The notes under the pieces are model-generated. The model was not told the origin of the DNA, searched no databases, and was given only the letters and a program-made list of their open reading frames with translations. A stretch of DNA of 30,120 nucleotides, taken from positions 1-30,120 of IMG/VR virus record IMGVR_UViG_3300036869_000085; one strand, 5' to 3'. Numbering within the stretch: the stretch's first letter is position 1; each line of letters starts with the position of its first letter. This DNA is from a virus (taxonomy: Duplodnaviria; Caudoviricetes). A program made the position numbers and the translations under genes. This document shows, in pieces, positions 1-24,099 of the stretch.

Positions 1-2048
1 CCGACGACCGCGGTGACGGCGCTCTCCGGCGAACCCGTGCCGTAGGAGAGCGTGGGCCCGGTGCTGCTGGAGAAGCGAAGAGGGCCCACGAAGACCGAGT
101 CCCGGGTGGAGGCGCTGTAGAGGTTCCAGTTCCCCGCCGGCGCCGACTCCACGCCAAGGGCCAGGTTGACGTTCTGGGTCCCGGAGGTCTGCTCGAGGAT
201 AGCGATGCCGTTGGACCTGGTGATGGTCGAGGCAGCGCCCTTGCTCGCGTTGGGGACGCGCACGCCGCTCACCACCGGGTAGGTCACCGCCGCGTTGGCG
301 GTCGCGGCCTGAACGAGCAGGGCGTCGTTGCGCGCAGCGCCGGCGGTCGTGAACGTCACCGCGAATTGGCCGCCGGCCTCCACTCCGCTCACCGCGTTGC
401 CAATGACCGCAAACTGTGCCGTCGTCGACAGAGAGTTGGAGACGCCGAAGGTCCACCGGGTGCCGTCGGTCAGCAGGCCCGGGCCCCATTCAGCGTACTG
501 GCTGGTGTCGTTGGTGTGCGGGAGCGCTGCGTAGTTGTTGAGGAAGTAGGTGCCGAAGACGCTCACCCGGCCGCCCGGGGTGGTGATGAGGATCGGCGTC
601 CCGGTGGCCGAGTTCATCGCGGAGAGCTGGCCGCCGAAGAGGTTGACGGCGTAGGAGTGGTCCAGGGTGATGCCGTTCCTGGTGACCGGGGTCCCCGAGT
701 CCTGGCGACAGAACGGGGTGAGGTTTAGCGCCTGGCTGTCGTGCGCGTAGACGCAGGACCCGGTGTTGCCCTCCGCGCCGCCCACCAGGTTGACCGTCGA
801 GCCGCCCTCGAAATGGTAGCCGTCGCCGGTGTTCGCGTCCGCCGCCGTCGCCGCGAGCGAGCAGTAAGAGCACCACTCTAGGTTGTAGCCGTGGCCGCCC
901 GCGAGCACCGCGTAGGTGGCCGCGAACTCGACGCCCACCGACGAGGCCGGGGTGGTCACGCCGGTGTTGTGCTGGAGGTAGAACCCATCGGAGACCGTCT
1001 TGCTCACCACGGTGTCCCGGATGGAGGCGGAAAGACCGGTGTTCAGCGTGATGCCGCGATAGGTCCCCTCAACGTAGACGTTGCGCACGTAGAGGCTCAC
1101 GGCGTGCGACGGGATGCCATTGTCAACCGCCACCTCGATGCCCGCGCCCGAGGTCGCCGTCACGCTGGCGTCCTGCCAGATAGACAGGTCCTCGAACGCC
1201 ACTTCATCGGAGGTGTAGCGCCCCGCGTCGGTGTATTGGAACACGCTCCCCGCGCAGAAAGACACGACCTGGGTGGACTCGCGCCCCTCGCCGACAATGC
1301 GCGTCCCGCGCTTCAGCACGATGGGGCAGCTCGTCACCTTGTACCGGCCGCGGGGGATGTGGATGGTGCCACCGTTGGCAAAGCCCTTCGGCGAAAGCAC
1401 TCCCGCGTCACCGACATTCAGTGGGAGCGCAGCCATCGCCTCGACGAATGCAGCATTAGTCAGCGTCGCGCCATCGCCCACCGCACCATGAGAGGTGAGA
1501 GTGCCGAGCTCCGCCATCCAGTCCTTGATCGGCCTCGATGTGCTCGTACCGGTGGCCGTGACGAACGTGTCACTTCCCCCCACTGCTCCCACCGCCAGCG
1601 CTGCATCTTGAGCAGCATCGCGCACGGCCTGATCTCGAATCGTCTGCTGGGCTATCTGGGTGAGTCGGTCGAGGGCGCGCTCGTGAACCCTGGCAGAGTA
1701 GGGGCCAGCGGCGGGCAGCGAGATGGGTTGCGTGAGCGGAACGATCCGGCGGATCGTGAGGGTGTACCCGGCGGCGCACTTCGACCCGGCCGTGAGCGTG
1801 ACGGTGCCAGATGCGCCACCGGCGCCAGTCACTAGGTATTCCGTCCCCGTGGCGAGCACGGTCTCCGCTCCCGAGGCGACTAGGGTCTTCGCCACCCGGA
1901 GGTGGGCGTTCTCCAGGAAAGGGAACCCCACCGGGAAGGCGACCGTGGCCCCGTTGCAGGTGTAGGGCCCGGAGATCGAGGTGGTGGAAGGGACCGCGGC
2001 GAAGGCCGGGCCGGCGAGCAGGAGGAGCAGGGGGAGGAGCTTCTTCAT
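1..2048 (-). CDS. Tailspike/tail fibre, partial (at least 682 aa, runs off the window): signal peptide, T7 gp17-like N-terminal anchor, pectate-lyase-like beta-helix
   Basis: Manual translation from the ATG at 2048 (upstream GGAGAG) has no stop to position 1. Starts MKKLLPLLLLLAGPAFAAVPSTTSISGPYTCNGATVAFPVGFPF...LTIRRIVPLTQ...HERALDRLTQIAQQ (anchor domain). Then HGAVGDGATLTNAAF...GGTIHIPRGRYKV...IVGEG (beta-helix cap). Ends YGTGSPESAVTAVV, a motif common near tailspike C-termini. Absent from the ORF track because its stop lies outside the window. Confidence 0.88.
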   Translation of the reverse strand, partial: MKKLLPLLLLLAGPAFAAVPSTTSISGPYTCNGATVAFPVGFPFLENAHLRVAKTLVASGAETVLATGTEYLVTGAGGASGTVTLTAGSKCAAGYTLTIRRIVPLTQPISLPAAGPYSARVHERALDRLTQIAQQTIRDQAVRDAAQDAALAVGAVGGSDTFVTATGTSTSRPIKDWMAELGTLTSHGAVGDGATLTNAAFVEAMAALPLNVGDAGVLSPKGFANGGTIHIPRGRYKVTSCPIVLKRGTRIVGEGRESTQVVSFCAGSVFQYTDAGRYTSDEVAFEDLSIWQDASVTATSGAGIEVAVDNGIPSHAVSLYVRNVYVEGTYRGITLNTGLSASIRDTVVSKTVSDGFYLQHNTGVTTPASSVGVEFAATYAVLAGGHGYNLEWCSYCSLAATAADANTGDGYHFEGGSTVNLVGGAEGNTGSCVYAHDSQALNLTPFCRQDSGTPVTRNGITLDHSYAVNLFGGQLSAMNSATGTPILITTPGGRVSVFGTYFLNNYAALPHTNDTSQYAEWGPGLLTDGTRWTFGVSNSLSTTAQFAVIGNAVSGVEAGGQFAVTFTTAGAARNDALLVQAATANAAVTYPVVSGVRVPNASKGAASTITRSNGIAILEQTSGTQNVNLALGVESAPAGNWNLYSASTRDSVFVGPLRFSSSTGPTLSYGTGSPESAVTAVV

Positions 2049-2053: not shown

Positions 2054-5000
2054 TCACTCTCCGTAGAGGGCAGATCCGAGCGAGCCCTGGCGCTTCTTGC
2101 CGTAGGTGGTCCCGAGGACCTTCTCGCCGAAGGTGTCGCTCGGGTCGCGGTCCTCGTCCAGCCAGTAGCCGAGGGTCGCCTTGGCCTGGCCCACCGGCAG
2201 GCCCGCAGCCATGCCGGCCGTCTCGGCAAAGTGAGAGCCGAAGGTGCGGGCCTCGTCTTGCCAGAGATCGTCGTCGAGCCAGGCCTTGGTGGTGCGGTAG
2301 CCCGCCGTGGCCGTCTGGGCGACGCCCGTGTAGACGCGGTCGATGGGCGAGAGGGAGACGTCCTTGCGCCCGTCGGCGACGGCTCGAGCGACTGGGCCGG
2401 CGAGCGGGATGAACGAGAGCGGGGCGAGGGCGGCGCGCCGCGCCATCCATCGCGCCCAGTCGGCGCCGTCGACCTTGCCGTCCTGGTCGTCGTCCTGGGC
2501 GCCCTTCCCCACCGCCAGGTCGGAGACCACCGCGCCGGCCATGACCCAGAAGAAAATCCGGGTGAAGCGGCGCATCGCCCGGCCGTAGGCCTTGTCCCGG
2601 ACATCGAGCTTGGCGTCGGCCGTGGCGCCCAGGAGGTCGTTGAGCCGCGAGCTCGCCCACCCGTGGAAGAGGGTGAACCACTTGGCGTGGGGGCTCCGCA
2701 TGATGGCGGGGAGGTCCTTCGTCGCGGCCGCCGTGAGGGAGAGCCGGACCGTCTGGTCGGCCCAGCGCACCGCCTTGGCGTGGTCGCCGGCGGAGCCCGC
2801 CAGGTCCCGGACCTTGCCCGCCATCGCCTGGTGGTAGGCGCCGAGCCACACCGCGTTGGCGACCACTCCGTCCGAGGCCTGGAAGGCCCACATGGCGACT
2901 TCGCGCGCCCGGTGGATGCCGCCGGTCTTGCCGAGGCTGCGCTCGAGCCCCTCGCGCACGTCGCGGTCCAGGTTGCGCGCCCGGTGCTTCATTTCGGCGC
3001 TCTGCTCGTGGATCCAGTCGATGGCCCGGCCGCGCTCCGCCATGACCTGGGAGATCCCCTTCCACATGAAGGTGTGGTCGACCCGGCTCTGGGCGTTCAC
3101 AACGCCGGTGAGGTTCTGGAGGGCCTGCGCCGCGTTGAAGGCGAAGACGCTTCCGGTGAGGCCGCGGCGGGTCCCGTTGACCATCTGGATCCACATCGAC
3201 TCGCCGCCGTCGGGGACGACCAGGTCGTTCGCGGTGTCCCGAATCCACTTGTCGAGTAGCGGCAGGACCTCCTCGCCGGCGGTGCGCTGGATGGCCGCCC
3301 GGAAGTGGGAATCCGTGACGATCTCGTAGGCCGAGATCAGGGACTCCCGCATCGCCACGTCCTTCGTCGCGTGGTTGAGGTGGCGGTACAGGCCGATGAG
3401 GGAGAGCTCGACCGGCCGGGCGAACTCCTCGACGCGGGCGTTGAGGTGGCCGTGCGGGGTGATGCCGCGCTCGGCGCCCGGCTGGTAGAGCTGGAAGGAG
3501 CCGAGGTCGGACTTCTCTCCCTGGGCCGCGCCGGCGTGCGAGAAGCGCCGGTCGTACACCATGGGGTAGTAGAAGCCGGGGCTCTTGTGGATCTGGCCGT
3601 CGGCCGTCTGGACCTCGAAGGCCTGGAGCTTCACCTTCTTCGGTGCGAGCCCGGTCATCTTCTTCTCGAGCTGCTCCATTTCCGGCCAGAGGCTCTCGAG
3701 CTGCGCGCCGATCCGGTCGACGAGCTCCCAGTCCTTCTTCGTGAGGTGGCGCAGGAACTCCTGGGCGGTGGCCTCGCCGTCCCAGGCCTGGAGGCCGAAC
3801 TTCTCTAGGCCGCCGTACTGCCAGCCCTTCACGATCTTGGACCGGTTGCTGTCGTTGCCCCAGTTGAGGGCCACGGCGAGCGCGGCCTCCATGGTGTAGG
3901 GCTGCCCCTTCACCGTGAAGCGGAGGTGCCGCCAGCGGAGCTTGTCCTCCATCGGCATCTTCTCGAGCTCCGCGAGGACCGGCTTCGCCACCTTCTCGGC
4001 GAGCTCGCTCCAGCGGTGGGTCGCGTCGTTCACCGGGTTCCAGAGGTACCTGGTGAAGGGCCCCTCAAGGTCCCCGCCGTCCGCCTCACGGAAGAACTCC
4101 TCGGGCCGGATCACGCCGGCCTTGAGGCGCGCCACCGCGCGGAGCGCCCTCTTCTTGAAGGAGAGGGTATTCCGGTCGACGACGACCCCGTTGTCGCCGA
4201 AGGTCTCGAAGAGCCGCTGGGAGAGCTCGCCGAGGATGGCCTTGCGCTCGCGCCGCCCCTTCGATGTGAGGAGGGTGTCCTTCACGTGGGCCAGGTGGGC
4301 GATCGACTCGACCGTCTCCCGGATCTCCGAGAGCTCCTCGCCGGAGGCCTCCTTCCAGTGGCGGGTCCGCTTGAGGTTCTCGATCACCCGGTCCGGGACG
4401 AAGGGGTCGCGGTTGAGCGCCTTCTGCTGCTCGAGCCAGGCGACCATCGACTCGGCTACCTTCGGGTCCCCACCGGCAGCGGCGTTGATCTCCCGGCGCC
4501 GGGCGACCTCCGCCATGCTCCTCGAGCTGCGGAGCTCGAGCGAGCCCAGGAGGTCGTCGACGCGCTGGAGGTAGTCGGCGCCAGCGAGGCCGAGCTTGGC
4601 CCGCTCCCGGTCGCCGAGGAACTTCTGGAGGTAGCCGACGTCCTTCCCGGCCTGCTCCCGGACGTCCCGGGCGGCCCGCCAGAGGTAGTGGTTGAAGAGC
4701 TGGAGCTCGTGGGCGTCGAAGGCCTCGCCGGCGAGCTGCCGCCGGGTGCCCTCGTCCTTCGCCTTGGCCGCCTTGGCGAGCAGGTTGATCGCGTCGAGCG
4801 CGCTCTTGCGCTCGGCGGAGAGGGCACGCGCCACCGAGACCTCGGCGAGGGGCTTCTCGCCCATGAACTCGCGGGCCCGCCGCTCGAGCGCCTTGGTGTC
4901 GACGGCGCGGAAGCGGGCCTCGAGGTCCGGATTGAGCCGGCGAGCCAGGATCCGCATGCCGGTGACGACGGCCCGGGCCTGGGCCTCGGTGTGCGTGGCG

Positions 5001-8000
5001 TCGAGCGCGGCCTCGCCGAGCGCCTGTGGGTTCTCGAGCAGGGCGGGGCCGTAGAGCTCCTGGAGCTTCTCCTGGACCCGGGTACGGATCACCTCGCCGC
5101 GGCTGGGGAGCTTGGCGAGGTCGCGCACGAGCTCGTCCCCGGTCTGGAAGCCGAAGTGCTCGGCGACCAGGTCGATCGGTGCGGCCTTCTCCGGGGAGGA
5201 GGTGGTCAGGCCGCGCAGGTTCTCCCGGACGAACTCCGCGCCGTAGCGCGCGACCGCCTCGGCGCGGTCGAGCATGCGCGGCTCGCCGGCGTCGGTAACG
5301 AGCTCGGGGGGCACGGTGCGCCCCTCGGGCATGCGGCCCTCCTTGAGGAAGCGGACGGCCTGGTAGTCCGGCTGGGCGTCGAGCTCCTTCGCCACGTCCT
5401 CGGTGAGGCGCTCCCGCTCGCCCGACATGAACTGGCGGCGCTCCCGGAGGTCGTCGGCGAGGAGGACGCGCTGGAGGTGCTCCTCGGCCTGGCGGCGGGC
5501 CTCGGTCAGGGCGGCGCGGATCTCGGCCGCGTCCTGCTCCGGCATGGCGCGCACGGCCTCCTCGATCTTGGCGGCGTCGGCGTCGGCCTCCCGGAGCGCC
5601 TCGTCGCCGCCCAGGAGCCGGTCGAACATGCGCCGGACGTCGTCCGAGAGCTTGAGCTCGGAGCCGAACTGCTGGCGGTAGGTCTCCTGGATCCCCTGGA
5701 GGCCCCGGTAGAGCTTCACCATCCAGCCCTTGAACTTGGCGAAGGTGCGGCCGAGCTCCGCCGTGGGAGCCTTGCCCTCCGCCAGGTAGAGCTCGAAAGC
5801 GTGGGAGAACCGCTCCTCCTTGGCGTCGACGGCCTTGAGCCGCTCGAGCTCCTCGAGCGTGAGGACCGGCCCCTTGCCGGCGGCCGCCCGGGCGTCCCGG
5901 GTCCTGAGGTCCTGGGCGTCGACGAGCGCGCGCTGGCGCTCCCCGTGGTCGGCGTAGCCCATGGTCTCGAGGGCGGTCCGGTAGAGCTCCCGGTTGATCT
6001 CGGAGGCCTCGGGCCGGCTGGCGAGCTGGCCGAGCACCAGGCTCATCCAGTGGCCGACCTCGTGCGCCGCGGTCGACTCGTCGGCGCCCTCGAGGAGGGT
6101 CACGTCGAAGGCGGAGACGTCCCCCTTGGGGTCGACCTGGAAGCGGATCTCGCCGCGCTTGCCCTGGAAGAGGAGGGCATGCTTCTCGGCCGCGGCGGCG
6201 ATGGCCTGCGCCCGCGCCGCGCCGCGCTTCTGCTCGAGGTCGGACACCTTGACGCCGCCCTCCGGCCCGCGGTCGTCGAAGACCTCGACCTGGAGGCCGT
6301 GCTTCTCGAGGGTGGGCCGGACCCGGGCCTCGACGCTCTGGGGGACCACCGCGACCTGGAACTCCTGGAGGCGGACGGCGCGCGGAGGCTTGGCCTCGAA
6401 GTATTCGGTCGGGGTGGTCCGGAGCTGCTCGGCGAAGACCTCGATCCGCTTCACCAGGTCGGCCGGCATGTCCTTCAAGCCGGAGAGTTCGAGCTCCCGG
6501 GCCAGGCTGACGCCCTTCTTGTACGAGTGGGCGATGGCGACGGCGAGGTTGTCGAGCGTGCCGAAGCCCATGCCCTTCTCGTGGTACGGCGAGACCGCCT
6601 TGACGATCTCGTCCCACTGGCGCTCGAGCGTGCCCTTGACCCGGGCCATTTCCTCGGGCGGGACGAGCCGGGCCCGGTCGGACTGGATCTCCTCGAGGGA
6701 GCGGAACTTCCGGGCGCCGTGAGCGCGTACCCAGCCGAGCCCGCCGGGCGTGTCGCTCTCCCCGCCCTGGAGGCCTCGGGCCTTCATTTCCCGGACGAGG
6801 TTGTCGAGCGTGGCCGGCCGCTTCTTGCCGTCGCTGTAGCGCTCGAAGTGGCGGTCACCGGAGAGCGCCGTGGTGACGCGCTCGCGCGCCCATGCGTCGA
6901 AGACGTCGGTGAGGCCCGCGCTCTGGATGGCGTCGCTGGTCCGCTGCTCCATCGCGTCGCGGTCGACCTCGCGCGTGTCGACCCGCCGAGCGTCGTCGAG
7001 GAACCGGTCGATCTTGTTGGCGGAGAGCTCGCCCTTGGGCCCCAGGTAGGCGAAGAGTAGCTCCTTCTGGAGCTTGTCCAGCCGGGCGGCGTTCTTGCCC
7101 TGCGCCTTCTGCTCGGCGAAGTGGGCCCGGATGGCGTCGCCCACCGCCGTCGAGAGCTCCCGGTCGAATGCCTCGGAGCGGTACTCCACGTTGCTCTTCG
7201 GGTCGGTGACCTCCGGGTGCGCCTTGAAGAAGGCCCGGACCGCGTCGGCCTTCGACCACTGGCTCTCGTTGAGCGTGCGCTCCTTCGTCGGGGCCTCCGG
7301 GGCGATCCCCTTCTCCTTGGCGAAAGCGAGCTCGAGCAGCGGGCGGAGCTGGCCGCCCTCCCAGGCCTTCGGGCCCTTCCTCGCGAGCTCGGCGTTGAGG
7401 TCGCCGGCGTAGCCCGCCGTCTCTCGCTCGAGCGGGCCGAGGAGGTTGCGGAGCTTGTTGACGCCCGTCGTCTTGAGGCCGTGGAAGGTGGTGGGGTGGC
7501 GGGGGGAGTAGACGTCGGCGTCGAAGATCGGGACCTTCGCCTTGGGGTCCACGAGCTGGCGCGGGGCGAGCAGAGTGATCTCGCCGAAGGCGGAGAGCGG
7601 GGACTCCTTCGGGGCGACGGCGATGGAGGGGACCACCAGGCCGCCGAGCTCGTCGGCGTGGAGCAGGTTGTCGGCCGTGAGGTTGTGCTGGACCACCAGG
7701 TTGCGGATCACGGCCTCCTCGGGCCGCTCCGGCTGGAAGAGGACGCCCTCGACCTCCCGGTCCCGGAAGAGCGCGGCGCGGGCCTGCTCGGCCGTCGGGT
7801 TCGGGGCGAACATGGTCGCCTGGCGTGGGTCGAAGGCGGCCTCGTGCGCCCAGGCGCGGAAGCGCTCCTGGAGCTCCTTGGGCTTCCCGGTCTCGAAGAG
7901 CCGGGCCAGCGCGGCCACCGCCGGCGGGACGTCGGCGCCACCGAAGAGCGAGCCCTGGGAGAGGATCTGGTCGACCCGGAGCTCCCGGCGGCGGGCGTCG

Positions 8001-11000
8001 TTGAGCAGGTCGATCGCGGCCTGGACGTTGGGGACCTCGTCGAGGCCGGGGTTGACGCCCTGGACACGCACCAGGGCCGGCGCGATCCGCTCGAGCTTCT
8101 GGAGCATGGCCGGTTGGGTGGCCGCCATGCGGTCGCCGGAGCCGAGGACCCTGCCGAGGAACATGCCCTCAATCCGGTCCTTCGCCTCGTCGGTGAGGGC
8201 GTCGCCGGCGAACCACTGGGCCCGGTTCTGCTGGTTGATCACCCCGTCCCGCTGGAGGAGCTTGACCACCTCGGCCGGGCGGTCCCGCATGACGTCGCGC
8301 AGGCTGGCGTCGCCGGCGGCGCCGAGCAGCTCGCCGATCCCCTGGACCGTCTCGTGGGAGAGGTTTTTCGCCTCCGCCACCGCGCGGGCCCGGGGGGAGA
8401 GGACCTGGGTCATGCCCTCGTTGGTGCGGCGGACCGCCGCGACGAGCTCCTCCTTGGGGGCGTCGCTCTTGAGCCCCTCGAGGACGCGCACCAGGATCGG
8501 GGCGCGCATGCCTTCGACCTGGGCCTTGTCGAGGCCGAAGGCGCCCGCCTTCTCGAGCAGGGCCGCCCGGTAGGCGCCGGCCGTCTTGGGTTCGCGCATG
8601 GCGCGCGCCAGCATCATCGCCCGGCCGTTCCCGCCCATGACGAGGGCCTTCTCGCCGGAGGTGACGAGCGGCGGGCCGTCGACGGCGGAGGGCGTGTCGG
8701 AGAGGACGAGGGCCGGGTTGAGCCGCTGGGCGCCCTGGACGACCTTGACCTGCTCCTCCTGCTGGCGGTGGTACTCCCGCTCCTGCACCCCTTCCGGGTA
8801 GCGCGGGTCCGGCTGGAAGGAGTCCGGCAGGTGGGAGGGGATGAGCTCGGAGGCCTCCAGGACCGCGTACCGGGCCCGCTCGCCCTGGGGGTGCTGCGGC
8901 GTCACCACCGCGGTCTGGGCGCCCAGGGCGCGGCCGCCGTGCGGCGGGGCGGCCGGCTCCGCGTCGCCCGCCCGCCGCACGAACGACTCGCCGTGGCCCA
9001 CCGCTCCACCCTTGCGGCTGTCGCCATACTTGGCCTTGGCGGCCGCCTTGGCGTTGACGAGCTGCGCCAGCGCGGCCTCCTTCGAGGTGCCGACGCCGGC
9101 GTAGGTCGAGAGCTGGTCGCCCGGCGCCAGGGTGCCCTCCGGACCGGCGAGGCGGGCCTGGAGGTCACGCAGGAAGGCGTCCGCGGCCTCCTGGGTGGGG
9201 AAGTGGGCGTAGAACTCGTCCCCCGTGCTCATGCGGTGGGCCTTGCCGCCCTGGGCCCGGGAGGAGGCGGCGAAAGCGTTGCCGTAGGCGATCAGGGCCT
9301 TGTCGCCGTAGGCCTGGCCGAGCTCCGGCTTGGCGTTGCGGGCGCCCAGGCCGGGCATGTCGGAGACGACGTGGACGCCCCCCTTCGCCCCCTCGCTCTT
9401 GAGGAAGGCCTCGTGCGCCTTCTGGTTGCCGAGGGCGGGGACCAGGCCGTCGGTGAAGCCGGCCCGGCCCAGGGCGGCGACGGCCTCCTTGGCCCGGGCG
9501 CTCATGGCGGCGAGCGCCGCGGTGTCGCCGCGGAAGGAGTCCCAGATCGCCGCGCGGACGGCGTCGGGGAGGTCGCCGAAGCCCTCGAGGGCGGCGTGCT
9601 CCGCCGGCGCCGGCGCGGGAGCGGCCGGGGCCGCCTCCGTGGTCAGGACCCGGCCCTCGGCCGGCCCGCGGGGCGCCAGGGCGAGCTCCGCCTGGCCGCT
9701 GGGCTCCTTGGCAGCCCGGGCGGGCGGCTGGCGCGGCGCCGCGTCGGGGGCGAGGGCCAGCGCGGTGGTGCCCTTCTCCGGGCCCTGGAAGCGGAGCGGC
9801 CAGCGCTGGAGGACCTCGGCCGGGGTCATGCCCTCGGTCCGGGAGAGGTGTTCGAGGGCGGCCCGGAAGAGCTTGGCCGTGGCCTGGGCGTCCTCGACGG
9901 TCCGGCGGCCGGAGAGGAGCTCGAGGAACTTGGCGTGCTCGAAGCCGTCGAGCTGCTCGAGCGGCCCGTCCGCGTTGCCGGTGACCCCGCCGAGCGCCTG
10001 CTGGAGCTTCTCCTGCTGCTTCTCCCACTCGATCTGCTGGCGGGGGGTGCGCGCCTCGCCGGAGAGCTTGACGTCCCCCTTGAGGGCCAGGAGGTGGTCG
10101 GTCTTGCCGAGCCGGGCGGTCCACTTCTCGATCGGGAAGGAGAGGTCCGGCAGGAGGCCGGCCTTCACGTGGTCGTACATGGCCCCGCCGTCGTCGGCGA
10201 GGTCGGCGGCCATCTTGCGGGGGTCGACCTTCTGCTTCTGCCAGTAGCCGTCCCAGGCCACCGGGTCCGCGAGGACGCGCGGGGCGCCCTGGGAGAGCGC
10301 CATCTTGCCGAAGAGCTCCTCGGCCTGCTCGGGCGACCGGGTGAGGAGCTCGCTCTCCTTTGCGTGCTCGGCGATCGCCTCGAGCTGGAGCCGCTCGTGC
10401 TCGGTGGCGACCTGGCGGCCGCGCTCGTGGAGGAACTGCCGACCCGGGCCCCATGCGGCGAGCAGGGCCATGTCCTGGATGCCCGCCACGAAGCCGTGGG
10501 CGGTGGCGTCCCACACCGGCTGCCAGGAGGCCTCCTGGCCGTGGGTGCCCTTGGCGATCTCGCCGACGGCCGCCTGGCCGGCCCCGTTGACGGCCATGTA
10601 GGCCCCGCCGATGGCGACGTGCTCGCCGTACTGGCGGAGCGCCGTGAGGGCGGCCCGGGCGGTGGTCTGCTCCACCAGCGCCTTCTCGACGCTCTGCGCG
10701 CCCGCGCGCTCGAGGATCGTCTTGACGATGGGGAAGCGCTTGACGAGCGGCCCGGCCAGGCCGGAGGTGATGCCGGCCAGGGCGAGGGAGCCGGAGACAG
10801 CGAAGGAGCGGGCCTCCGCCTCGGTGAGGAGCGGCGTCTTGCCGTCCCCCTTCTTGAGGCCGGCCAGGGAGCGGTACATCGGGCCGACGTTCTCGAGGAA
10901 GTCGAAGGCCGCGCCGCCGGCGTACTGGCCGATCCCGACGCCGGTGATGCCGCCGGCCACGCCACCCGCGACGTTGCCGACCACCGGGACGGCCGTGCCC

Positions 11001-11968
11001 GCCGCCGCGCCGGCGCCGCCGGTGGTGAGGCCGGCCGCGGTCCCGCCGATGAGGCGGAAGAGGGCAGACCCCACCAGGTAGGGGATCATCTTCGGTGCGC
11101 CCACGATGGCGCGCGAAAGCGGGTTCTTGGCGCCGTAGTCGCGCCCCTGCTGCTGCTTCTCGAGGGCGTCGAGCTCCTTGAGGTCCTCCGGGGTGGCCTC
11201 CCCGAGGAACTGCTTGAGGGCGAGCCGGGGGATGGTGATCGAGTCGGTCCAGCCGCCGGCCGCGGCGCGCGCCCAGGCCGGGGCGACGTCGAGGACGAGC
11301 TCCGGCCGGCCGCCGCCACCCATCGGCACCCAGGGGCGATTGACTTCCTTCCAGCGGCCGAAGAGCCACTCCCATGTGGAGGCGTCGGCGAGCTCGTCCT
11401 TGACGTAGGCGGCCCGGCCCGGGTCGCTCATGTAGGAGCGGAGGACCGGGCTGTCGCGCATCGCCCGCTCGAGCTCCTCCTGCTTGAGCTCGGCCTGGAG
11501 GGCCTCGAGGTTGTCGGCGATGAACTGCGGCGCCAGGTCGGGCCGGACGGCGGCGATGGTCCGGATCGCGAGCCCCTTCTCGGCCGGCAGGTTCTCCTGG
11601 GTGGTGCGCCAGGCCTGGAACTTGGCGTCCAGGTCGGTCTCCTGGGACGCGGCGCGCCGCTCCTCGGCGACCATGTCCGCGACGGACTGGGGGGCGGGCG
11701 GAGGCACGGCGCCCGGGGGCGGCCTGGTGTAGGCCAGGGTCTCGCCGGGCAGCATCGCGCGGGCCGGCGGCGGCTCGGTGACGCCCAGGTCCATCCCGTC
11801 GCCGGTCGGGGCCGGCGCGGGCGGCGCCAGCGGCGCGCCGGGGGGCGGCGGGGCGACGACGGGGGCCGGCGGCGCGCCGGCGGGCGCGGGCGGGGCGCCA
11901 TCGGGCGCGGCAGGCTCGCGGGCGGCCTTGCGCTCGTTGGCGATGATCTCGGCGAGGGTCAGGGGCAC
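2054..11968 (-). CDS. Giant (3304 aa) internal virion/ejection protein, Bbp10-like scaffold with polyvalent domains (GGDEF-like, DdrB-ParB-like, possible ART-like, HExxH zincin)
   Basis: GTG start with GAGG 5 nt upstream. Third and largest gene after the MC-start ejection protein. Gly-rich hydrophobic N-terminal segment. Motifs STGDEF, GGNGR, HNL..LGG..PSIA, ADESTAAHEVGH and EERFSHAFELYLAEGKAP. Confidence 0.9.
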   Translation of the reverse strand: MPLTLAEIIANERKAAREPAAPDGAPPAPAGAPPAPVVAPPPPGAPLAPPAPAPTGDGMDLGVTEPPPARAMLPGETLAYTRPPPGAVPPPAPQSVADMVAEERRAASQETDLDAKFQAWRTTQENLPAEKGLAIRTIAAVRPDLAPQFIADNLEALQAELKQEELERAMRDSPVLRSYMSDPGRAAYVKDELADASTWEWLFGRWKEVNRPWVPMGGGGRPELVLDVAPAWARAAAGGWTDSITIPRLALKQFLGEATPEDLKELDALEKQQQGRDYGAKNPLSRAIVGAPKMIPYLVGSALFRLIGGTAAGLTTGGAGAAAGTAVPVVGNVAGGVAGGITGVGIGQYAGGAAFDFLENVGPMYRSLAGLKKGDGKTPLLTEAEARSFAVSGSLALAGITSGLAGPLVKRFPIVKTILERAGAQSVEKALVEQTTARAALTALRQYGEHVAIGGAYMAVNGAGQAAVGEIAKGTHGQEASWQPVWDATAHGFVAGIQDMALLAAWGPGRQFLHERGRQVATEHERLQLEAIAEHAKESELLTRSPEQAEELFGKMALSQGAPRVLADPVAWDGYWQKQKVDPRKMAADLADDGGAMYDHVKAGLLPDLSFPIEKWTARLGKTDHLLALKGDVKLSGEARTPRQQIEWEKQQEKLQQALGGVTGNADGPLEQLDGFEHAKFLELLSGRRTVEDAQATAKLFRAALEHLSRTEGMTPAEVLQRWPLRFQGPEKGTTALALAPDAAPRQPPARAAKEPSGQAELALAPRGPAEGRVLTTEAAPAAPAPAPAEHAALEGFGDLPDAVRAAIWDSFRGDTAALAAMSARAKEAVAALGRAGFTDGLVPALGNQKAHEAFLKSEGAKGGVHVVSDMPGLGARNAKPELGQAYGDKALIAYGNAFAASSRAQGGKAHRMSTGDEFYAHFPTQEAADAFLRDLQARLAGPEGTLAPGDQLSTYAGVGTSKEAALAQLVNAKAAAKAKYGDSRKGGAVGHGESFVRRAGDAEPAAPPHGGRALGAQTAVVTPQHPQGERARYAVLEASELIPSHLPDSFQPDPRYPEGVQEREYHRQQEEQVKVVQGAQRLNPALVLSDTPSAVDGPPLVTSGEKALVMGGNGRAMMLARAMREPKTAGAYRAALLEKAGAFGLDKAQVEGMRAPILVRVLEGLKSDAPKEELVAAVRRTNEGMTQVLSPRARAVAEAKNLSHETVQGIGELLGAAGDASLRDVMRDRPAEVVKLLQRDGVINQQNRAQWFAGDALTDEAKDRIEGMFLGRVLGSGDRMAATQPAMLQKLERIAPALVRVQGVNPGLDEVPNVQAAIDLLNDARRRELRVDQILSQGSLFGGADVPPAVAALARLFETGKPKELQERFRAWAHEAAFDPRQATMFAPNPTAEQARAALFRDREVEGVLFQPERPEEAVIRNLVVQHNLTADNLLHADELGGLVVPSIAVAPKESPLSAFGEITLLAPRQLVDPKAKVPIFDADVYSPRHPTTFHGLKTTGVNKLRNLLGPLERETAGYAGDLNAELARKGPKAWEGGQLRPLLELAFAKEKGIAPEAPTKERTLNESQWSKADAVRAFFKAHPEVTDPKSNVEYRSEAFDRELSTAVGDAIRAHFAEQKAQGKNAARLDKLQKELLFAYLGPKGELSANKIDRFLDDARRVDTREVDRDAMEQRTSDAIQSAGLTDVFDAWARERVTTALSGDRHFERYSDGKKRPATLDNLVREMKARGLQGGESDTPGGLGWVRAHGARKFRSLEEIQSDRARLVPPEEMARVKGTLERQWDEIVKAVSPYHEKGMGFGTLDNLAVAIAHSYKKGVSLARELELSGLKDMPADLVKRIEVFAEQLRTTPTEYFEAKPPRAVRLQEFQVAVVPQSVEARVRPTLEKHGLQVEVFDDRGPEGGVKVSDLEQKRGAARAQAIAAAAEKHALLFQGKRGEIRFQVDPKGDVSAFDVTLLEGADESTAAHEVGHWMSLVLGQLASRPEASEINRELYRTALETMGYADHGERQRALVDAQDLRTRDARAAAGKGPVLTLEELERLKAVDAKEERFSHAFELYLAEGKAPTAELGRTFAKFKGWMVKLYRGLQGIQETYRQQFGSELKLSDDVRRMFDRLLGGDEALREADADAAKIEEAVRAMPEQDAAEIRAALTEARRQAEEHLQRVLLADDLRERRQFMSGERERLTEDVAKELDAQPDYQAVRFLKEGRMPEGRTVPPELVTDAGEPRMLDRAEAVARYGAEFVRENLRGLTTSSPEKAAPIDLVAEHFGFQTGDELVRDLAKLPSRGEVIRTRVQEKLQELYGPALLENPQALGEAALDATHTEAQARAVVTGMRILARRLNPDLEARFRAVDTKALERRAREFMGEKPLAEVSVARALSAERKSALDAINLLAKAAKAKDEGTRRQLAGEAFDAHELQLFNHYLWRAARDVREQAGKDVGYLQKFLGDRERAKLGLAGADYLQRVDDLLGSLELRSSRSMAEVARRREINAAAGGDPKVAESMVAWLEQQKALNRDPFVPDRVIENLKRTRHWKEASGEELSEIRETVESIAHLAHVKDTLLTSKGRRERKAILGELSQRLFETFGDNGVVVDRNTLSFKKRALRAVARLKAGVIRPEEFFREADGGDLEGPFTRYLWNPVNDATHRWSELAEKVAKPVLAELEKMPMEDKLRWRHLRFTVKGQPYTMEAALAVALNWGNDSNRSKIVKGWQYGGLEKFGLQAWDGEATAQEFLRHLTKKDWELVDRIGAQLESLWPEMEQLEKKMTGLAPKKVKLQAFEVQTADGQIHKSPGFYYPMVYDRRFSHAGAAQGEKSDLGSFQLYQPGAERGITPHGHLNARVEEFARPVELSLIGLYRHLNHATKDVAMRESLISAYEIVTDSHFRAAIQRTAGEEVLPLLDKWIRDTANDLVVPDGGESMWIQMVNGTRRGLTGSVFAFNAAQALQNLTGVVNAQSRVDHTFMWKGISQVMAERGRAIDWIHEQSAEMKHRARNLDRDVREGLERSLGKTGGIHRAREVAMWAFQASDGVVANAVWLGAYHQAMAGKVRDLAGSAGDHAKAVRWADQTVRLSLTAAATKDLPAIMRSPHAKWFTLFHGWASSRLNDLLGATADAKLDVRDKAYGRAMRRFTRIFFWVMAGAVVSDLAVGKGAQDDDQDGKVDGADWARWMARRAALAPLSFIPLAGPVARAVADGRKDVSLSPIDRVYTGVAQTATAGYRTTKAWLDDDLWQDEARTFGSHFAETAGMAAGLPVGQAKATLGYWLDEDRDPSDTFGEKVLGTTYGKKRQGSLGSALYGE

Positions 11969-11975: not shown

Positions 11976-13883
11976 TCAGGGGGCGAGCGTGCCGACGCGG
12001 AAGCGGGAGAGGCTCTCGAGCTCGGCCTGCTTCCGGTCGTAGGGCTTCATCGTCTCGGGGCGGAGGGGGTTGAGCCCCTGGGTCTTCTCCCAGAGGTATC
12101 GGACGTTGTCCTCGGTGACGGGGAAGGAGGCCGCGGGGTCCGCCTGGAGCTCCTTGACGGCCTCCTTGCGGAAGGCGTCCGGGATCTCCTCGACGAAGGG
12201 CTTGTCCGCCAGGTCGGGGTCGGTGCGGGCGATGGCCGCGGGGACGTCGCTCCGGTCGCCGAACCAGGAGCCGCCGCCGGTGACGGTGCCCTTGCGGAAC
12301 CTCTTGTTGACCTCTTCGGTCCACCTCTTCGGGTCGATGGTGCGGCCGGCCTTCTTCTCGGCCGCCTGGAACTCGAGGAGGTCGCGGACCACCTGCGCGT
12401 GCGCCGCGGCGCGCTTCGGCTCCCAGGTCGCCGGGGCGCCCTTATTGGGGAAGGCGCCGGCGCCGCGGCCCACCTCGACGATCTCGGCCATGACCGAGGT
12501 GGGCAGGGACTCGTCCGGCCGGACCGCCTGGCCCTTGGTCTGGAGGAAGTGGCCGAGCAGCGCCCGGCGGTCGCGCGGCGCCACCTGCGATAGGTAGCGC
12601 TCCTCGAAGGCGGCGCCGTCCAGGCCGACGAACTCGTTGGGCGCATCGACGAGCCGGGTGGCGATGGTCGAGAAGGCGCGCTCCTGCGCCGCGGTGGCTG
12701 GGAGGCCCTGCGCCTCTCGAGCGTCGGCGTCCGACCAGTCGAGCAGGTGCTTCCAGGTGTCGGGGGCGTTGTTGATGAGCCAGCTCGAGGTCTTCCCGTC
12801 GATGGCGGCGAGGCCCTTCCGGCCGCGCTGGTCCGGCCCGCCCAGGTACGCGGTCTTGGCCGAGTCCCAGTGGTCCTTGATCGTGGCGTTCCACCCCTCG
12901 CGCTCCGACTGGAGCAGCCCCTCGAGGTTGGAGACGGCCTCCCGCCGGTAGGCCTTGGGCGCGCCTCGGATGAGCGCCCGGGCGTTCTGCTCGTTGACCT
13001 TGCCGGTCTTGGGGTCGCGGGAGGCGTCGACGGCCTGCTGGGCGCGGTCGAAGGCGTCGACCTGGGCCTGGACGTGGCCGATCCGCTCGACGTACTTGTC
13101 CGCCTCGGTGCCCAGGACCTCGCCGGCGGTGGGGCCGCCGGGGACCATGGGCTTCGAGAGGTAGCCCTGGGCGGCCTCGCCCTCCTTGGCGGCGAGGAGC
13201 CGCTCCACCACCGTCTTCGCCACGTCCTTGCGCCAGAGGCCGAGGAAGACGGCGGCCGGCGTGCCCTCCTTGGGCGGGTACGTGTCGGCGCCCTCGAGGC
13301 CCCGGCGCCGGGCCTCCTGCATGAAGAGCGGCTCCATGTTCTGGCGCTCGCGGTCGATGACGCCCGGCTGGTCGTAGCCGTTGGCGATCGCGTCGAGCGC
13401 GGCCGCGCGCCGGCCCTCGAAGGCCTGCCCCTCGACGATCTGGCGCTGCTGGCCCACGTGGGTCTCCACGTGGCGCTGGGCCTGGACCAGGGTGCCGTCG
13501 GTCCGGCGCCGGAAGGCGGCCCGCTGGCCCTCGTCGGTGAGCCCGTCGGCGATCTGCTGCTGGTCCTTCTGGAGCTGCTCGAGCGTCGAGGCGGACTGCT
13601 CGAGGGCGCCGTGCCCCTGCTGGAAGAGGAAGCCGGGCGCGTCCTTCGTGCCGTAGAGCCGCCCGGTGACCCGCTTCTGGAGCTCCGTCTCGGCGTCCTC
13701 GACGACCGCGACGTCCGCGTTGCGCTTCGCCTCGAGGGCGTGCTTGCCCAGGAGCAGCGCCGCGCCGGCGGCCGCGCCGGAGAGCTCCTCGCCGAAGGCG
13801 CCCCTCGGGTTGAGGTTGAACTGCGGGGTCGGCCCCTGCTGGGGGAGAACGGTCGGGAGGGTCTGGAGGTCGAGCTTCGGCAT
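11976..13883 (-). CDS. Internal virion/ejection protein (T7 gp15-position, Bbp11-like), 635 aa
   Basis: Long helical Ala/Gln-rich ORF with a GAGG RBS, between the small MC-start ejection protein and the giant protein. Assignment rests mainly on synteny. Confidence 0.7.
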   Translation of the reverse strand: MPKLDLQTLPTVLPQQGPTPQFNLNPRGAFGEELSGAAAGAALLLGKHALEAKRNADVAVVEDAETELQKRVTGRLYGTKDAPGFLFQQGHGALEQSASTLEQLQKDQQQIADGLTDEGQRAAFRRRTDGTLVQAQRHVETHVGQQRQIVEGQAFEGRRAAALDAIANGYDQPGVIDRERQNMEPLFMQEARRRGLEGADTYPPKEGTPAAVFLGLWRKDVAKTVVERLLAAKEGEAAQGYLSKPMVPGGPTAGEVLGTEADKYVERIGHVQAQVDAFDRAQQAVDASRDPKTGKVNEQNARALIRGAPKAYRREAVSNLEGLLQSEREGWNATIKDHWDSAKTAYLGGPDQRGRKGLAAIDGKTSSWLINNAPDTWKHLLDWSDADAREAQGLPATAAQERAFSTIATRLVDAPNEFVGLDGAAFEERYLSQVAPRDRRALLGHFLQTKGQAVRPDESLPTSVMAEIVEVGRGAGAFPNKGAPATWEPKRAAAHAQVVRDLLEFQAAEKKAGRTIDPKRWTEEVNKRFRKGTVTGGGSWFGDRSDVPAAIARTDPDLADKPFVEEIPDAFRKEAVKELQADPAASFPVTEDNVRYLWEKTQGLNPLRPETMKPYDRKQAELESLSRFRVGTLAP

Positions 13884-13894
13884 GGAGCCTCAGG

Positions 13895-14428
13895 TCAGAC
13901 GAGCGTGCCGCCGGTGGTGCCGCCGCCGCCGCGCGGGCCGAGCTGGGCCATCTTGTAGGAGGCCCCCATGCTGGCGGCCTGGGCGGCCGTCCCGAGGAGC
14001 GTCGAGGCGGCGCCGTACCTCGAGGAGGTGAGCGCAAGCTCCCCCTGGGCCCGGCTGTTCATGGCGCCGACCTTGTAGCCCCAGGCCTCGCGGGCGGCGT
14101 TGTTCTTCACCGTCTCGACGTCGAGCTCGCTCATCATCCGGGCGTCGGCGATGGCCTCGAGGCCGCCGCCGCTCTCGAGCGCGATCCCGGTGGTGCCGAG
14201 CTGTGCCCGAGCCTGGCCGATCTCCTGGCCCGCCTTCATGCGCCGGATGCCGGCCTCCGCGGCGCCGCGCTGGAGCGCCAGCGCGCCCGACTGCTCGGCG
14301 ATCTTGGCGTTCTCGTTCGCCACCGCCTTCTGGTAGTTGCCCGCCTGCACCTGGCCGTAGGTGGAGACGCCGGCGGCCGCGACGGAGGCCCCGATGGCGA
14401 TCATGGTGAGGGTGGCTGGTTCACACAT
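13895..14428 (-). CDS. Small internal virion/ejection protein (T7 gp14-like), 177 aa
   Basis: True start is MCEPATLTMIAIGASVAAAGVSTYGQVQAG, with the MC-x-P start and Ala/Gly-rich helix typical of this family. GGAGG RBS upstream; overlaps the end of the previous gene. The ORF-track extension to 15076 is spurious. Confidence 0.8.
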   Translation of the reverse strand: MCEPATLTMIAIGASVAAAGVSTYGQVQAGNYQKAVANENAKIAEQSGALALQRGAAEAGIRRMKAGQEIGQARAQLGTTGIALESGGGLEAIADARMMSELDVETVKNNAAREAWGYKVGAMNSRAQGELALTSSRYGAASTLLGTAAQAASMGASYKMAQLGPRGGGGTTGGTLV

Positions 14429-14909
14429 GGGCAGGCCTCCGGAGGACGATGCGGTGGAAGGGCAGGCGGGCGCGCCCGAACGGCGCCGCCGGCTCGATGG
14501 TGAAGCCGAGCCGGCCGGCCCAGCGGAGCGCCTGGGCGTAGCGGGCGTCGACGTACTGCTCGAGCTGCTCGTGCTCCTCGAGCCAGGTGGCGAGCACGGC
14601 CTTCGAGGCCCGCCAGAAGAGGAGCGGGGTCCGCTCGACGTGGTCCCCGGTGAGGAGCCAGGGGTGGGCGGTGGGCGACAGGAGGGTCTGCTTCCCCACC
14701 CCGAAAAGCGCCGCGACCTCGCCGTCGATGAGGCCGGCCCAGGCCGCGCCGTGGAGCCGGGACCACCGCAGCGCGGCGAGCAGGCCCGGGAGCGGACGGT
14801 AGCCGCCGCTCGCCAGGATCTCGGCCGCGTCGCCCTCGCGCATGCTCGGGGCGAGCCGCTCGGCGTGCTCGCGGGTGGCGAGCTCGAAGGTGACGCGCTC
14901 ACGCTCCAC
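14421..14909 (-). CDS. GNAT-fold internal virion protein A-like (T7 gp13-like), 162 aa
   Basis: Motifs MREGDAAEILASGG, AALFGV, PWLLTGD, LEQYVDARYAQALRWAGRLGF are typical of the gp13-like acetyltransferase-fold protein that follows the tail nozzle gene. Confidence 0.78.
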   Translation of the reverse strand: MERERVTFELATREHAERLAPSMREGDAAEILASGGYRPLPGLLAALRWSRLHGAAWAGLIDGEVAALFGVGKQTLLSPTAHPWLLTGDHVERTPLLFWRASKAVLATWLEEHEQLEQYVDARYAQALRWAGRLGFTIEPAAPFGRARLPFHRIVLRRPAHV

Positions 14910-18918: not shown

Positions 18919-19389
18919 CTAGACGAACACGCCCGGCGCCGTGGCGACGTCCATGCAGAGCCCGGCGGTGAGCGCGCCGGCGGTGCCGTCGTTGGTGGCG
19001 ATGGTGATGATGAGGCCGAGGTAGCGCCTCGTGCAGCCGGCCGCGAGGCACCGGAAGCCGCGGAAGCGGTAGCCGGCCACCAGGTCCGCCTTGGCGATGG
19101 CGCCCGAGTCCGCGAGGATGATCGGGTTGCCGGTCAGGTCCGCGGCGTCGGCGTTGACGAGCTGGATCTTGACGGTGGAGGCGCCGGCCGCGGCCAGGTA
19201 GGTGGTCACGATCTGCACCAGGACGTCGACCTCGGAGCCCCGGCCCGGGTCGAAGACCGGAGTGCCGAGGGGACCGGCGGGGAGGGCGGTGCCGCCCCAC
19301 AGGTCGATGACGTTGGTCGAGTTGAAGGCCCCGGCCGCGTGGACGAGGGTCTGCGCGTCGGAGAAGAGGAGCTGCTTGTCGAGCATCAT
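18919..19389 (-). CDS. Capsid cement/decoration protein (Bbp16-like), 156 aa
   Basis: MMLDKQLLFSDAQ...STNVIDL...ADLVAGYR...RRYLGL...TAGALTAGL matches the Bbp16 family pattern. RBS AAGGGAG before the ATG at 19389. Confidence 0.88.
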   Translation of the reverse strand: MMLDKQLLFSDAQTLVHAAGAFNSTNVIDLWGGTALPAGPLGTPVFDPGRGSEVDVLVQIVTTYLAAAGASTVKIQLVNADAADLTGNPIILADSGAIAKADLVAGYRFRGFRCLAAGCTRRYLGLIITIATNDGTAGALTAGLCMDVATAPGVFV

Positions 19390-19465
19390 GTGCGTTCTCC
19401 CTTTCGGTGGTGGGGGCCGCAAGCTCGAGGGCGCCGTTCAGGCCGGCCCCGCGCTCACACGGTCG

Positions 19466-20455
19466 CTAGGCGACCTGGGCCTCCGTGTTGGTGATCGCGT
19501 CGGTGACGCGGACCGGGGCGCCCATGACGCGGGTGACCGGCTTGCCCTCCACGTCCTCGATCGTGATGGTGGCGTTCTTGGTGGCGGTACGGGCCTGCTG
19601 GTGGAGGAACTCGGCCACCTTCCGGTTGCAGTACCAGGCGAGCCGGCCGACGTTCGGATCGAAGATCCGGTAGTAGGCCGAGATCATGGCCGGGACGAGG
19701 GTGTCGCCCGTGGCCGCCAGGTTGGTGGTGTCGATGTTGGCGACGCGCACGAGCTGCCGCGCGTCCTTGACCACCAGGCCGAAGTCCCAGCTCCAGTGGG
19801 TGACCCAGGCGCGGAACTTCTTGCCCGAGCCGTCGTCCCAGAGCTGCTTCCCCATGTCGTCGGGTGTGAGGCCGCCCTGGCTGCCCTTCGGGTAGATGCC
19901 GAAGACGCTCTCCGGGCCCCAGCAGATCAGCCAGATCGACGTGTTGTCGTTGGCGGCGTCGTCGGTGTCGACGCTGATGATCTGCCCGCCGTAGGGGTTG
20001 GTGGTGGCGTCGAGGCGGGGGGCGAGGCCGGTGAACTTCTCCGGCGCCGTCTTGGTCGAGTGGTAGAAGACGCCGGTGCTGATCTCGTTGTTCATGCTCT
20101 GCACGAACGCGAGGTCCTCCGACGCCCGGAAGGCGGCCTCGTTGCCGCCCAGCCGGGCCTGCTTGACGTCGACCGCGCTCATGCCCTCGAGCTGGCCGGC
20201 CGCCTCGTCGTACTGCCCCTTGCGGCTCTTCGAGATCGCGACGCCCTCGTTGTAGCGGCGCCACCCGACGGACGGCAGCCCGACGCGGGTGGTGACGCGG
20301 TGGCCGGTGGTGAGGTTGCCCTCCATGACCACCATGTCCTCGAGGACGGGGTTGCGCTTGGTGAGCGCCTCCACCACCTGAGCGACCGCGCCGTCGGGGT
20401 CGAGCCCCTTCATCTGGTCGAGCAGGGTGGGAAGGTCGGTGCCGATGGTCGCCAT
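19466..20455 (-). CDS. Major capsid protein (Bbp17-like), 329 aa
   Basis: Motifs PTLLD...DPDG, NPVLEDM..MEGN..TGH..T.R.GLP...WRRYNEGV, PEKFTGLAPR, NTSIWLICWG, GIYPKGS..GL, VRVANID, DAITNTEA; AAGGAG RBS. Confidence 0.95.
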   Translation of the reverse strand: MATIGTDLPTLLDQMKGLDPDGAVAQVVEALTKRNPVLEDMVVMEGNLTTGHRVTTRVGLPSVGWRRYNEGVAISKSRKGQYDEAAGQLEGMSAVDVKQARLGGNEAAFRASEDLAFVQSMNNEISTGVFYHSTKTAPEKFTGLAPRLDATTNPYGGQIISVDTDDAANDNTSIWLICWGPESVFGIYPKGSQGGLTPDDMGKQLWDDGSGKKFRAWVTHWSWDFGLVVKDARQLVRVANIDTTNLAATGDTLVPAMISAYYRIFDPNVGRLAWYCNRKVAEFLHQQARTATKNATITIEDVEGKPVTRVMGAPVRVTDAITNTEAQVA

Positions 20456-20503
20456 CTTCTTCTCTCCTTCGTGGTGTGGTTCCCGAGGACGCCCGCGCTC
20501 CGA

Positions 20504-21397
20504 CTAGGTGTCGGTCTCTCCGCGCTCGGCGCGGAGCTGCTCGGCCATCTTCGGGTACATCTTGTCGGTGAACGTCTTGCCCGCCGGCGCGCCGCCGGCC
20601 CCGCGCCCGGTCCTAGCCACCGTGTCGTCCTCCTTGGTGGCCTCGTGGATCCGGTTGAGGAGCTTGATGAACGCCGGGTGCGAGCCCAGGCCCGTCCGCT
20701 CGAGCTCGGAGACGATGGGGTCGAAGTCGGTCCCCGAGAAGCGCTTGAGCGCCTCGAGGCCGTTGTGGAGGATCCCCTCCAGCTTCGCGCCGCCGATCTC
20801 CTTGTCCGCGCGGGCCTGCGTCTCCAGCCCTGCGACGTGCTCCTCGTGCGCCGTGACGAAGGCCTGGGTCACCTTCGCCTGCATCTTCGTCCCCAGGGCG
20901 ACGACGTCCTGGAGCTGCTCCCCCTTGAGGTTGAGCTTCTTGCCGATGCCCTTGAGCTCGCCCAGGAGCTCCTCGTCGGCCTTCTGCCCCTCGGGGAGCT
21001 CGGGCGTCCAGGCGTCGAGGTCGTCCGCCCCGGCCCCCTTGTCGCCGTCCTTCCCCTTCTCGCCGGCGCCGTCCGCCGGCTTCTCGCCGCCCTTCCCGCC
21101 GAGGAGGGTCTTCTTGGGCGGCGGGTCCGCCTTGCCGCCCTTCTTCCCCTTCTCGGCCTTGGCCTTGGCGGCCGCGTCGGCCTTGGCCTTCGCGTCCGCC
21201 TCGACCTTCGCCGCTGCGGCGGCCTTCTCGCTCGCCGCCTTCTCGGCCGCGGCCTTCGCCGCGGCGTCGTCCGCTCCGCCGGCGCCACCTTCGCCCTCGC
21301 CGCCCTCGCCTTCGCCGCCGCCATCACCGGCCCCGGCGGCGTCGTCCGCCTCGGGGGCCATGAGGAACCTCTGTCCGTTCAGCCAGTGCCAGATCAC
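20504..21397 (-). CDS. Capsid scaffolding protein (Bbp18-like), 297 aa
   Basis: Acidic Gly/Ala low-complexity N-half, then ADKEIGG, LERTGLGSHPAFIK, KEDD and C-terminal DKMYPKM; sits immediately before the capsid gene; GTGA overlap start. Confidence 0.82.
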   Translation of the reverse strand: MIWHWLNGQRFLMAPEADDAAGAGDGGGEGEGGEGEGGAGGADDAAAKAAAEKAASEKAAAAAKVEADAKAKADAAAKAKAEKGKKGGKADPPPKKTLLGGKGGEKPADGAGEKGKDGDKGAGADDLDAWTPELPEGQKADEELLGELKGIGKKLNLKGEQLQDVVALGTKMQAKVTQAFVTAHEEHVAGLETQARADKEIGGAKLEGILHNGLEALKRFSGTDFDPIVSELERTGLGSHPAFIKLLNRIHEATKEDDTVARTGRGAGGAPAGKTFTDKMYPKMAEQLRAERGETDT

Positions 21398-23863: not shown

Positions 23864-23868
23864 GGGCC

Positions 23869-24099
23869 TCAGGCCTCGGACTCGTCGGCGAGCTTCGTCA
23901 CGGCCACGATCACGGTGCAGGTGGAGCCGTAGGGGTACTCGGCCGCCTCCTTCGTGGGGACGTTGAGGCAGAGCCGGCCGGCCTTGCCGTCGAGCTCCAC
24001 CTCGACGCGCGCCTTGCCGGTCGGCGTGTCGCCCGCCATGACCGGGTACATCGGGTCCCAGCTCGACTCGACCCTGACCACCTTGCCCTTGAGCTCCAT
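23869..24099 (-). CDS. Hypothetical beta-rich protein, 76 aa
   Basis: MELKGKVVRVESSWDP...; RBS AAGGGAG before the ATG at 24099; fills the gap before the portal gene. Confidence 0.65.
   Translation of the reverse strand: MELKGKVVRVESSWDPMYPVMAGDTPTGKARVEVELDGKAGRLCLNVPTKEAAEYPYGSTCTVIVAVTKLADESEA

Follow-up and report, generated by a model that had tools for sequence, protein, structure and literature searches.

Carin-1 Dpo31 and Dpo36 (8CK1, 28LX; PMC13317679), BPP-1 Bbp9, BcepC6B gp18, phiV10 p25 and T7 gp17 share one type of tail anchor, a domain that in Carin-1 is linked to the virion base (excerpts of PMC13317679). The four cultured genes that we inspected from lists of 72 and 122 records, those encoding BPP-1 Bbp9, Carin-1 Dpo31, BcepC6B gp18 and phiV10 p25, are leaderless and start at the anchor. 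The spike gene described here encodes the same anchor (profile E-value 1.6e-42; TM-score 0.90) and has the anchor plus β-helix layout of Dpo31, to which it adds a leader of 17 residues together with Cys31 and Cys91.

Signal peptides are found on phage lysins (excerpts of PMC6116005 and PMC10820202) and on one viral NosD-like β-helix protein (excerpt of PMC13452462). Sec-exported endolysins (fOg44 Lys44 and the SAR lysins) and T4 RI (PMC6116005, in the excerpted text) are late proteins kept outside the cytoplasm until lysis, the behavior that we propose for the spike. However, these proteins are lysis factors and not structural parts that rejoin a cytoplasmic particle. A second parallel is provided by the Bdellovibrio MAT fibres, which an excerpt of PMC10769870 describes as phage-fibre-like trimers having signal peptides, so such trimers can be folded after export, as proposed for the spike. 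The MATs differ in that they are surface adhesins encoded by the host, have an N-terminal domain of their own and are not virion parts, whereas the leader in our window precedes a T7-type anchor within a phage operon.

Among cultured phages, signal-peptide-like leaders resembling that of the spike are seen on p64, p66 and p67 of the Myxococcus phage Mx8 and on p14 and p15 of Mx9. In both phages (Mx8, L239:36781-39367; Mx9, L246:3501-5310) the leader-like starts are those of a fibre-like protein and neighbouring genes located after the ejection genes, and homology of the fibre-like protein to other phages begins at residue 30, past the leader. The anchor family is a different one: PHROG 1640 does not match Mx8 p64, which gives a weak match to tail fibres, and neither phage is present among the best 40 of the 72 anchor-family records. 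We found no mention of the leaders of these fibre-like genes in the literature; the excerpted text of PMC10386132, which discusses Mx8, contains one unrelated occurrence of 'signal'. Burkholderia phage Bcep781 gp49 (15 cysteine residues) has a visible leader and carries the GenBank note 'possible tail fiber; possible signal peptide domain'. It differs from the spike in having no match to the T7-type anchor and in lying away from the ejection-gene slot, and the signal peptide is an annotation remark for which we found no test in the literature. A full-text literature search gave no description of exported tail fibres of tailed phages (supplementary SignalP tables may mention such leaders) and, as far as that search reaches, the assembly route implied by the present gene is undescribed.

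The spike gene and its start

The window, by which we mean the whole stretch of DNA analysed, is an entire linear virus record of 30,120 bases that has a GC content of about 72% and is an estimated 64% complete. Profile and domain searches identified a collinear podophage module on the minus strand, in the order small terminase, large terminase (assigned from position and size), portal, scaffold, GP7 capsid, Bbp16, gp11- and gp12-like proteins, gp13-, gp14- and gp15-like proteins and a 3304-residue ejection protein (Table 1). The spike gene (2048-1, minus strand) comes directly after the ejection gene and then runs off the contig end. BPP-1 (bbp10-bbp9) and Carin-1 (gp32-Dpo31) show the same order of ejection protein and fibre. 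The window phage is a BPP-1/Carin-1-like podophage and its spike gene occupies the fibre slot. The capsid protein is 42-46% identical to those of deposited phages such as BcepC6B and Pseudomonas Ab31-like phages (among the best 20 of 103 rows), and the same capsid type, 43% identical, is found in BK063671.1, which has Methanomicrobiales as its listed host. The ejection protein carries ddrB-like ParB, PBECR5 and LPD22 domains (LPD22 below the cut-off), a cargo of the polyvalent-protein type, and residues 111-136 of the gp12-like nozzle form a CBM5/12-like insert that falls slightly under the Pfam cut-off.

Table 1 Features of the spike gene and of the structural module in the window
Position	Strand	Feature	Basis or remark
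1..401	-	C-terminal region of spike	Ends at contig edge, ~30 residues short of the expected stop; comparison with P0039
402..1508	-	Right-handed β-helix, ~residues 181-549	Tailspike-type glycan-binding or glycan-cutting domain; fold only
1620..1997	-	Tail anchor, T7 gp17/BPP-1 Bbp9/Carin-1 Dpo31-type, residues 18-143	β-sandwich plus helix
1776..1778	-	Cys91, predicted disulfide partner of Cys31	Covariation
1956..1958	-	Cys31, predicted disulfide partner of Cys91	Covariation
1998..2048	-	Predicted Sec/SPase I signal peptide, residues 1-17	Simple rule; Ala17 aligned with start Met of leaderless homologues
2058..2062	-	RBS, GGAGA	9 nt 5' of ATG at 2048; overlaps end of upstream gene (TGA 2056-2054)
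2054..11968	-	gp16-like ejection protein, 3304 residues	No leader; places fibre gene in canonical slot
11976..14909	-	gp15-, gp14- and gp13-like internal virion genes	No leaders
14899-17544	-	Tail nozzle, gp12-like	PHROG 376 and 394 cover nozzle and adaptor; no leader; presumed docking site with adaptor
17541-18233	-	Adaptor, gp11-like	PHROG 376 and 394 cover nozzle and adaptor; no leader; presumed docking site with nozzle
18919..27116	-	Head module: Bbp16, major capsid GP7, scaffold, portal, terminase genes	No leaders

Translation of the spike gene opens with MKKLLPLLLLLAGPAFA followed by AVPST. The leader consists of a KK n-region, an h-region having seven Leu residues, a G-P break and A-F-A at residues 15-17, with the predicted cut after Ala17. 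Hence, it has the three elements on which our own rule for Sec/SPase I signal peptides is built: a basic n-region, an uncharged hydrophobic h-region and small residues at -3 and -1. Inspection of the window leader and the family leaders gave neither a twin-arginine motif nor a lipobox Cys at the cut. The leader calls reported here rest on this simple rule plus conservation across the family. Within the window the rule passes 10 of 940 ATG/GTG starts (~1%), two of which belong to the spike gene, and passes only the spike gene among the 18 called genes.

The reading frame stays open upstream as far as 3248, but third-position GC jumps from 0.52 (2198-2049) to 0.96 (2048-1899), with the switch at 2048. 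As the GC bias switches into the spike frame at this position, the upstream open frame is a shadow of the 3304-residue gene, and on this ground a start at 3248 was rejected. Starting instead at an in-frame GTG (2057) would lengthen the protein by only three residues and retain the leader. Downstream, codons 11-32 contain no ATG, GTG or TTG, and the next Met residue is M178. Judged from these sequence signals, the leader-bearing start is confirmed.

Spike residues 19-136 match positions 3-117 of PHROG 1640 (E-value 6e-28), and since the match begins at residue 19 and profile position 3, the anchor starts just past the predicted cut. An AF2 model of residues 18-143 built from 124 sequences (pLDDT 92.8) gave TM-scores of 0.90 to Carin-1 8CK1_B and 0.73 to T7 gp17 (7BOZ), with LME-1 orf22 and Kp9 also matched, and the anchor (P0001 in our set) retains 33 of the 42 columns conserved among leaderless forms. 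These findings bear out what the first-pass annotation had noted: a basic n-region, Leu-rich h-region and A-F-A site in the translation of 1-2048(-), a good RBS (GGAGA, 9 nt ahead of the ATG), a predicted mature N-terminus at the anchor start, no other ATG before M178 and no alternative start that would leave the anchor intact.

The head (residues 181-549) was modeled with a pLDDT of 81.6, and its Foldseek matches were the AlgE4 A-module, GVE2 ORF18 and CBA120 TSP3 (14-16% identical), with 11-17% identity to solved enzymes. Head homologues carry PF12708/PF13229. The head contains six cysteine residues (241, 265, 393, 396, 432 and 447), which, among the head homologues aligned (33 out of 37), are common only to P0039. 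P0039 is a protein of 597 residues, 65% identical to the window head, that has a leader-like start, all six head cysteines and no anchor; it may be an independent, exported copy of the head or a second-tier spike. The window protein has the N-terminal anchor, the slot after a large ejection protein and the right-handed β-helix receptor domain of a tailspike, but its translation does not begin at the anchor because the leader precedes it. By these predicted features it is a tailspike of the T7 gp17/Bbp9/Dpo31 type that departs from ordinary members by its leader.

The leader and the cysteine pair across the anchor family

Of 33 anchor homologues, 28 begin directly at the anchor and five, among them the three closest, have a leader. 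When these proteins were combined with loci from three collections, 237 hits were obtained, which fell into 161 groups at 90% identity, with three rows removed (L046 and L162, which are cut, and a weak second hit in L044); the truncated P0137 was also left out. A leader is present in 21 of these 161 dereplicated anchors and 140 lack one. A leader-containing profile listed 120 proteins, 66 of which have a leader by our rule, a share biased upward because the search profile itself included the leader. In the merged, dereplicated set 61 of 225 non-redundant anchors have a leader (P0103 and P0114 were counted as leader forms by hand scoring). The leaders diverge in sequence and in length (17-30 residues) and their anatomy is constant. 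A subset of homologues keeps the predicted signal peptide, a check that the first-pass annotation had proposed, and does so as divergent leaders in register. The predicted leader is a family trait of dozens of uncultured relatives.

The register is precise. In the 66 leader forms the start-Met column is occupied by Ala in 62, the residue at -3 is small in all 66 and Thr is at +1 in 59, whereas 102 of the 140 leaderless forms have M-T at the same column. As the last leader residue, nearly always Ala, takes the place of the start Met, cleavage would yield the usual mature N-terminus, the same as that left by Met removal in BPP-1 Bbp9 and Carin-1 Dpo31. A shared internal start that would give a cytoplasmic isoform was also considered and rejected, since no internal start is common to the leader loci examined.

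The anchors of L127 and L144 are 88% identical, yet one has a leader and the other does not, and on an 84-row tree the state changes 11-13 times, which argues that export is not required for the anchor. Unconstrained trees hinted that the two main leader clades arose independently, a scenario that AU tests did not support; the data are compatible with one origin (p-AU 0.49 and 0.72).

Columns 31 and 91 of the anchor rank 2nd of 7381 pairs by MI-APC and remain 10th when all Cys-Cys rows are removed, which indicates a contact. Given this covariation, it is quite probable that a Cys31-Cys91 disulfide forms. Both residues are present in 53 of 61 leader forms versus 2 of 164 leaderless forms in the merged set and in 17 of 21 versus 2 of 140 in the smaller set. 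There are exceptions in both directions: 8 of the 61 leader forms are without the full pair and two leaderless forms retain it. The larger leader clade includes eight leaderless members, six of which have just one of the two cysteines. Co-evolution of leader and cysteine pair beyond shared ancestry was not supported, as tests on 6 and 7 independent pairs (too few) gave a median p of 0.625, which is not significant. The sequence pattern may reflect one ancestral event followed by losses.

Proposed assembly route and alternatives

We consider it likely, on the sequence evidence, that the spike is exported, folds in the periplasm and is docked onto virions at lysis. The first part of this route is the firmest: Sec export and cleavage of the leader very probably occur, with the spike passing through Sec and SPase I cutting after Ala17. 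In the periplasm Cys31-Cys91 and the head cysteines would become oxidised and spike trimers would form, while leaderless heads and tails would be completed in the cytoplasm, leaving the sockets of the gp11-like ring empty. Lysis would then mix the two compartments and allow the spike to dock onto the gp11-like ring of the spike-less particles, a step that we expect, with fair confidence, to follow holin/endolysin action. The likely gain is the stabilization of host-recognition parts by disulfides, and a possible side gain is that the spike trims host polysaccharide ahead of phage release. P22 heads and tail parts reportedly join in vitro (a study of 1967), a precedent for late docking. Prediction of the adaptor-anchor complex gave a score of 0.00 (mark 0.32), a value that argues neither way on binding. 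Docking at lysis would have to overcome dilution after the burst.

Near-complete relatives bear on whether the spike is a virion part or a free enzyme. G001 (47.4 kb, 100% complete, with terminal repeats) has a capsid protein 78% identical and a portal 61% identical to those of the window, and G002 and G003 are 97% and 100% complete, respectively. None of the three has an anchor match other than the leader-bearing gene, and no second, leaderless anchor gene was found in G001-G005 or G009 (three of these are incomplete), although a distant second anchor that escaped recognition is possible. On contigs of sufficient length the leader-bearing gene usually follows the large ejection gene (exceptions are L167 and L044). 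Behind the same leader and anchor the heads differ, being a β-helix in the window, GDSL-type in P0004 and about 200 residues in L004 (which is G001) and L005. The two short heads gave no enzyme match, and that of G001 has no family match. A sole anchor gene together with varying, partly non-enzymatic heads points to a virion part rather than a free enzyme. With near-identical anchors occurring in both leader states, the simplest reading is one structural job that may be supplied from either compartment.

Some relatives have additional leader-bearing genes. In G001 three more leader-bearing proteins are encoded downstream (L004:11042-11884, 13779-16196 and 16334-17131), among lysis-type genes; they match no known family, and the ESM Atlas named none for two of them. 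One to three extra leader-bearing genes also follow the fibre in L005, L072, L089 and L140. Given these proteins, an appendage of several parts may be exported. L189:1333-4585 encodes, after a leaderless anchor fibre that groups within the leader clade, two small proteins with leaders, an arrangement indicating that some exported parts outlast loss of the fibre leader.

The first-pass annotation had argued that a tailspike with a virion anchor and a cleavable Sec leader would be exported, a claim strengthened by the in-register leaders of 61 of 225 anchors, the lack of a conserved internal start and the covarying cysteine pair. It had also offered two fates for the exported spike. Joining virions at lysis gains from the sole anchor gene in three of three relatives and from the swapped heads. 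The other fate, a purely secreted depolymerase or agent of superinfection exclusion, fares less well, and such a role may be a side effect.

The alternative that survives best, although we think it improbable, is a dual fate in which an un-exported fraction equips virions in the cytoplasm and the exported fraction is a free depolymerase that clears polysaccharide or blocks superinfection. Free depolymerase does occur in lysates (excerpt of PMC6116005), the window head is a β-helix and P0039 is a leader-bearing copy of that head without an anchor. Judging from the leaderless near-twins, cytoplasmic synthesis of the anchor is feasible. However, leader forms share no second start, so the cytoplasmic pool would keep an uncut hydrophobic leader of 17 residues on its anchor. 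Nor would cleavage then need to restore the mature N-terminus exactly, and the head of the closest complete relative is short and without an enzyme match.

A staged meeting of spike and particle in the periplasm, while the outer membrane is still closed, by a prolonged holin-permeabilised stage or a vesicle-type release, would remove the dilution problem, and the extra leader-bearing genes after the fibre in several relatives suggest a multi-part exported appendage that would suit it. We give this route only a slim chance, as ordinary lysis-type genes are present (G001 encodes a lysozyme) and the part of the G001 gene calls scanned showed no recognisable gene for export machinery.

Slightly less probable still is a purely secreted non-virion protein that has its anchor as a relic, the virion using some other fibre or none. 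Bacteria do secrete phage-fibre-like proteins, such as the Bdellovibrio MATs with their signal peptides (PMC10769870, in the excerpted text), and several head homologues have a leader-like start and no anchor. Against this stand the sole anchor gene in three of three near-complete genomes, its position in the canonical fibre slot and an anchor that mostly retains its conserved columns and stays constant while heads change. Finally, a wrong start or a chance hydrophobic N-terminus is scarcely credible: although the frame is open upstream and the leader was scored by a single rule of our own that passes about 1% of random starts, the RBS and the codon-position GC switch at 2048, the lack of a usable later start and the dozens of divergent leaders in register all contradict an artefact.

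Host range and implications

One leader form, a second-clade member in a deltaproteobacterial MAG (L008:1132-15412), is chromosome-linked, and the genome surveys gave no other. It lies in a truncated prophage situated between host genes, with an integrase, ejection genes, the leader-bearing fibre and lysis-type genes; no head genes were seen. In the phylum of G006, 16 of 401 genomes match the anchor and none of the 18 anchors read has a leader. In the class of G007 the anchor is matched by 13 of 339 genomes, and among the 12 readable cases only G007 has a leader. A plasmid search for the anchor returned only Klebsiella and Bordetella records. Among sequencing runs, no RNA run was listed with a match, and two DNA runs matched in small shares and over short pieces only. 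From the 72% GC content and the Mx8 parallel, our guess is that the host of the window phage belongs to the Myxococcota.

The anchor family is well suited to the question of export, since leaderless structures have been solved (Carin-1 and T7) and near-identical anchors occur with and without leaders. The route is also testable in culture because Mx8 and Mx9 of Myxococcus xanthus carry leader-bearing fibre-like genes. On balance we lean toward a widespread podophage group in which the whole recognition apparatus, comprising the anchor fibre and the further leader-bearing proteins, would be secreted and disulfide-bonded in the periplasm, the phage becoming infectious only once lysis joins the two pools; loss of a leader of 17-30 residues would switch the route off and leave the anchor unchanged. 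If the sole anchored spike is exported, then infectivity would be completed at lysis and would depend on the Sec and disulfide machinery of the host. The timing of infection would thereby gain a step at which host defence might act, and in the laboratory such spikes would need periplasmic expression to fold.
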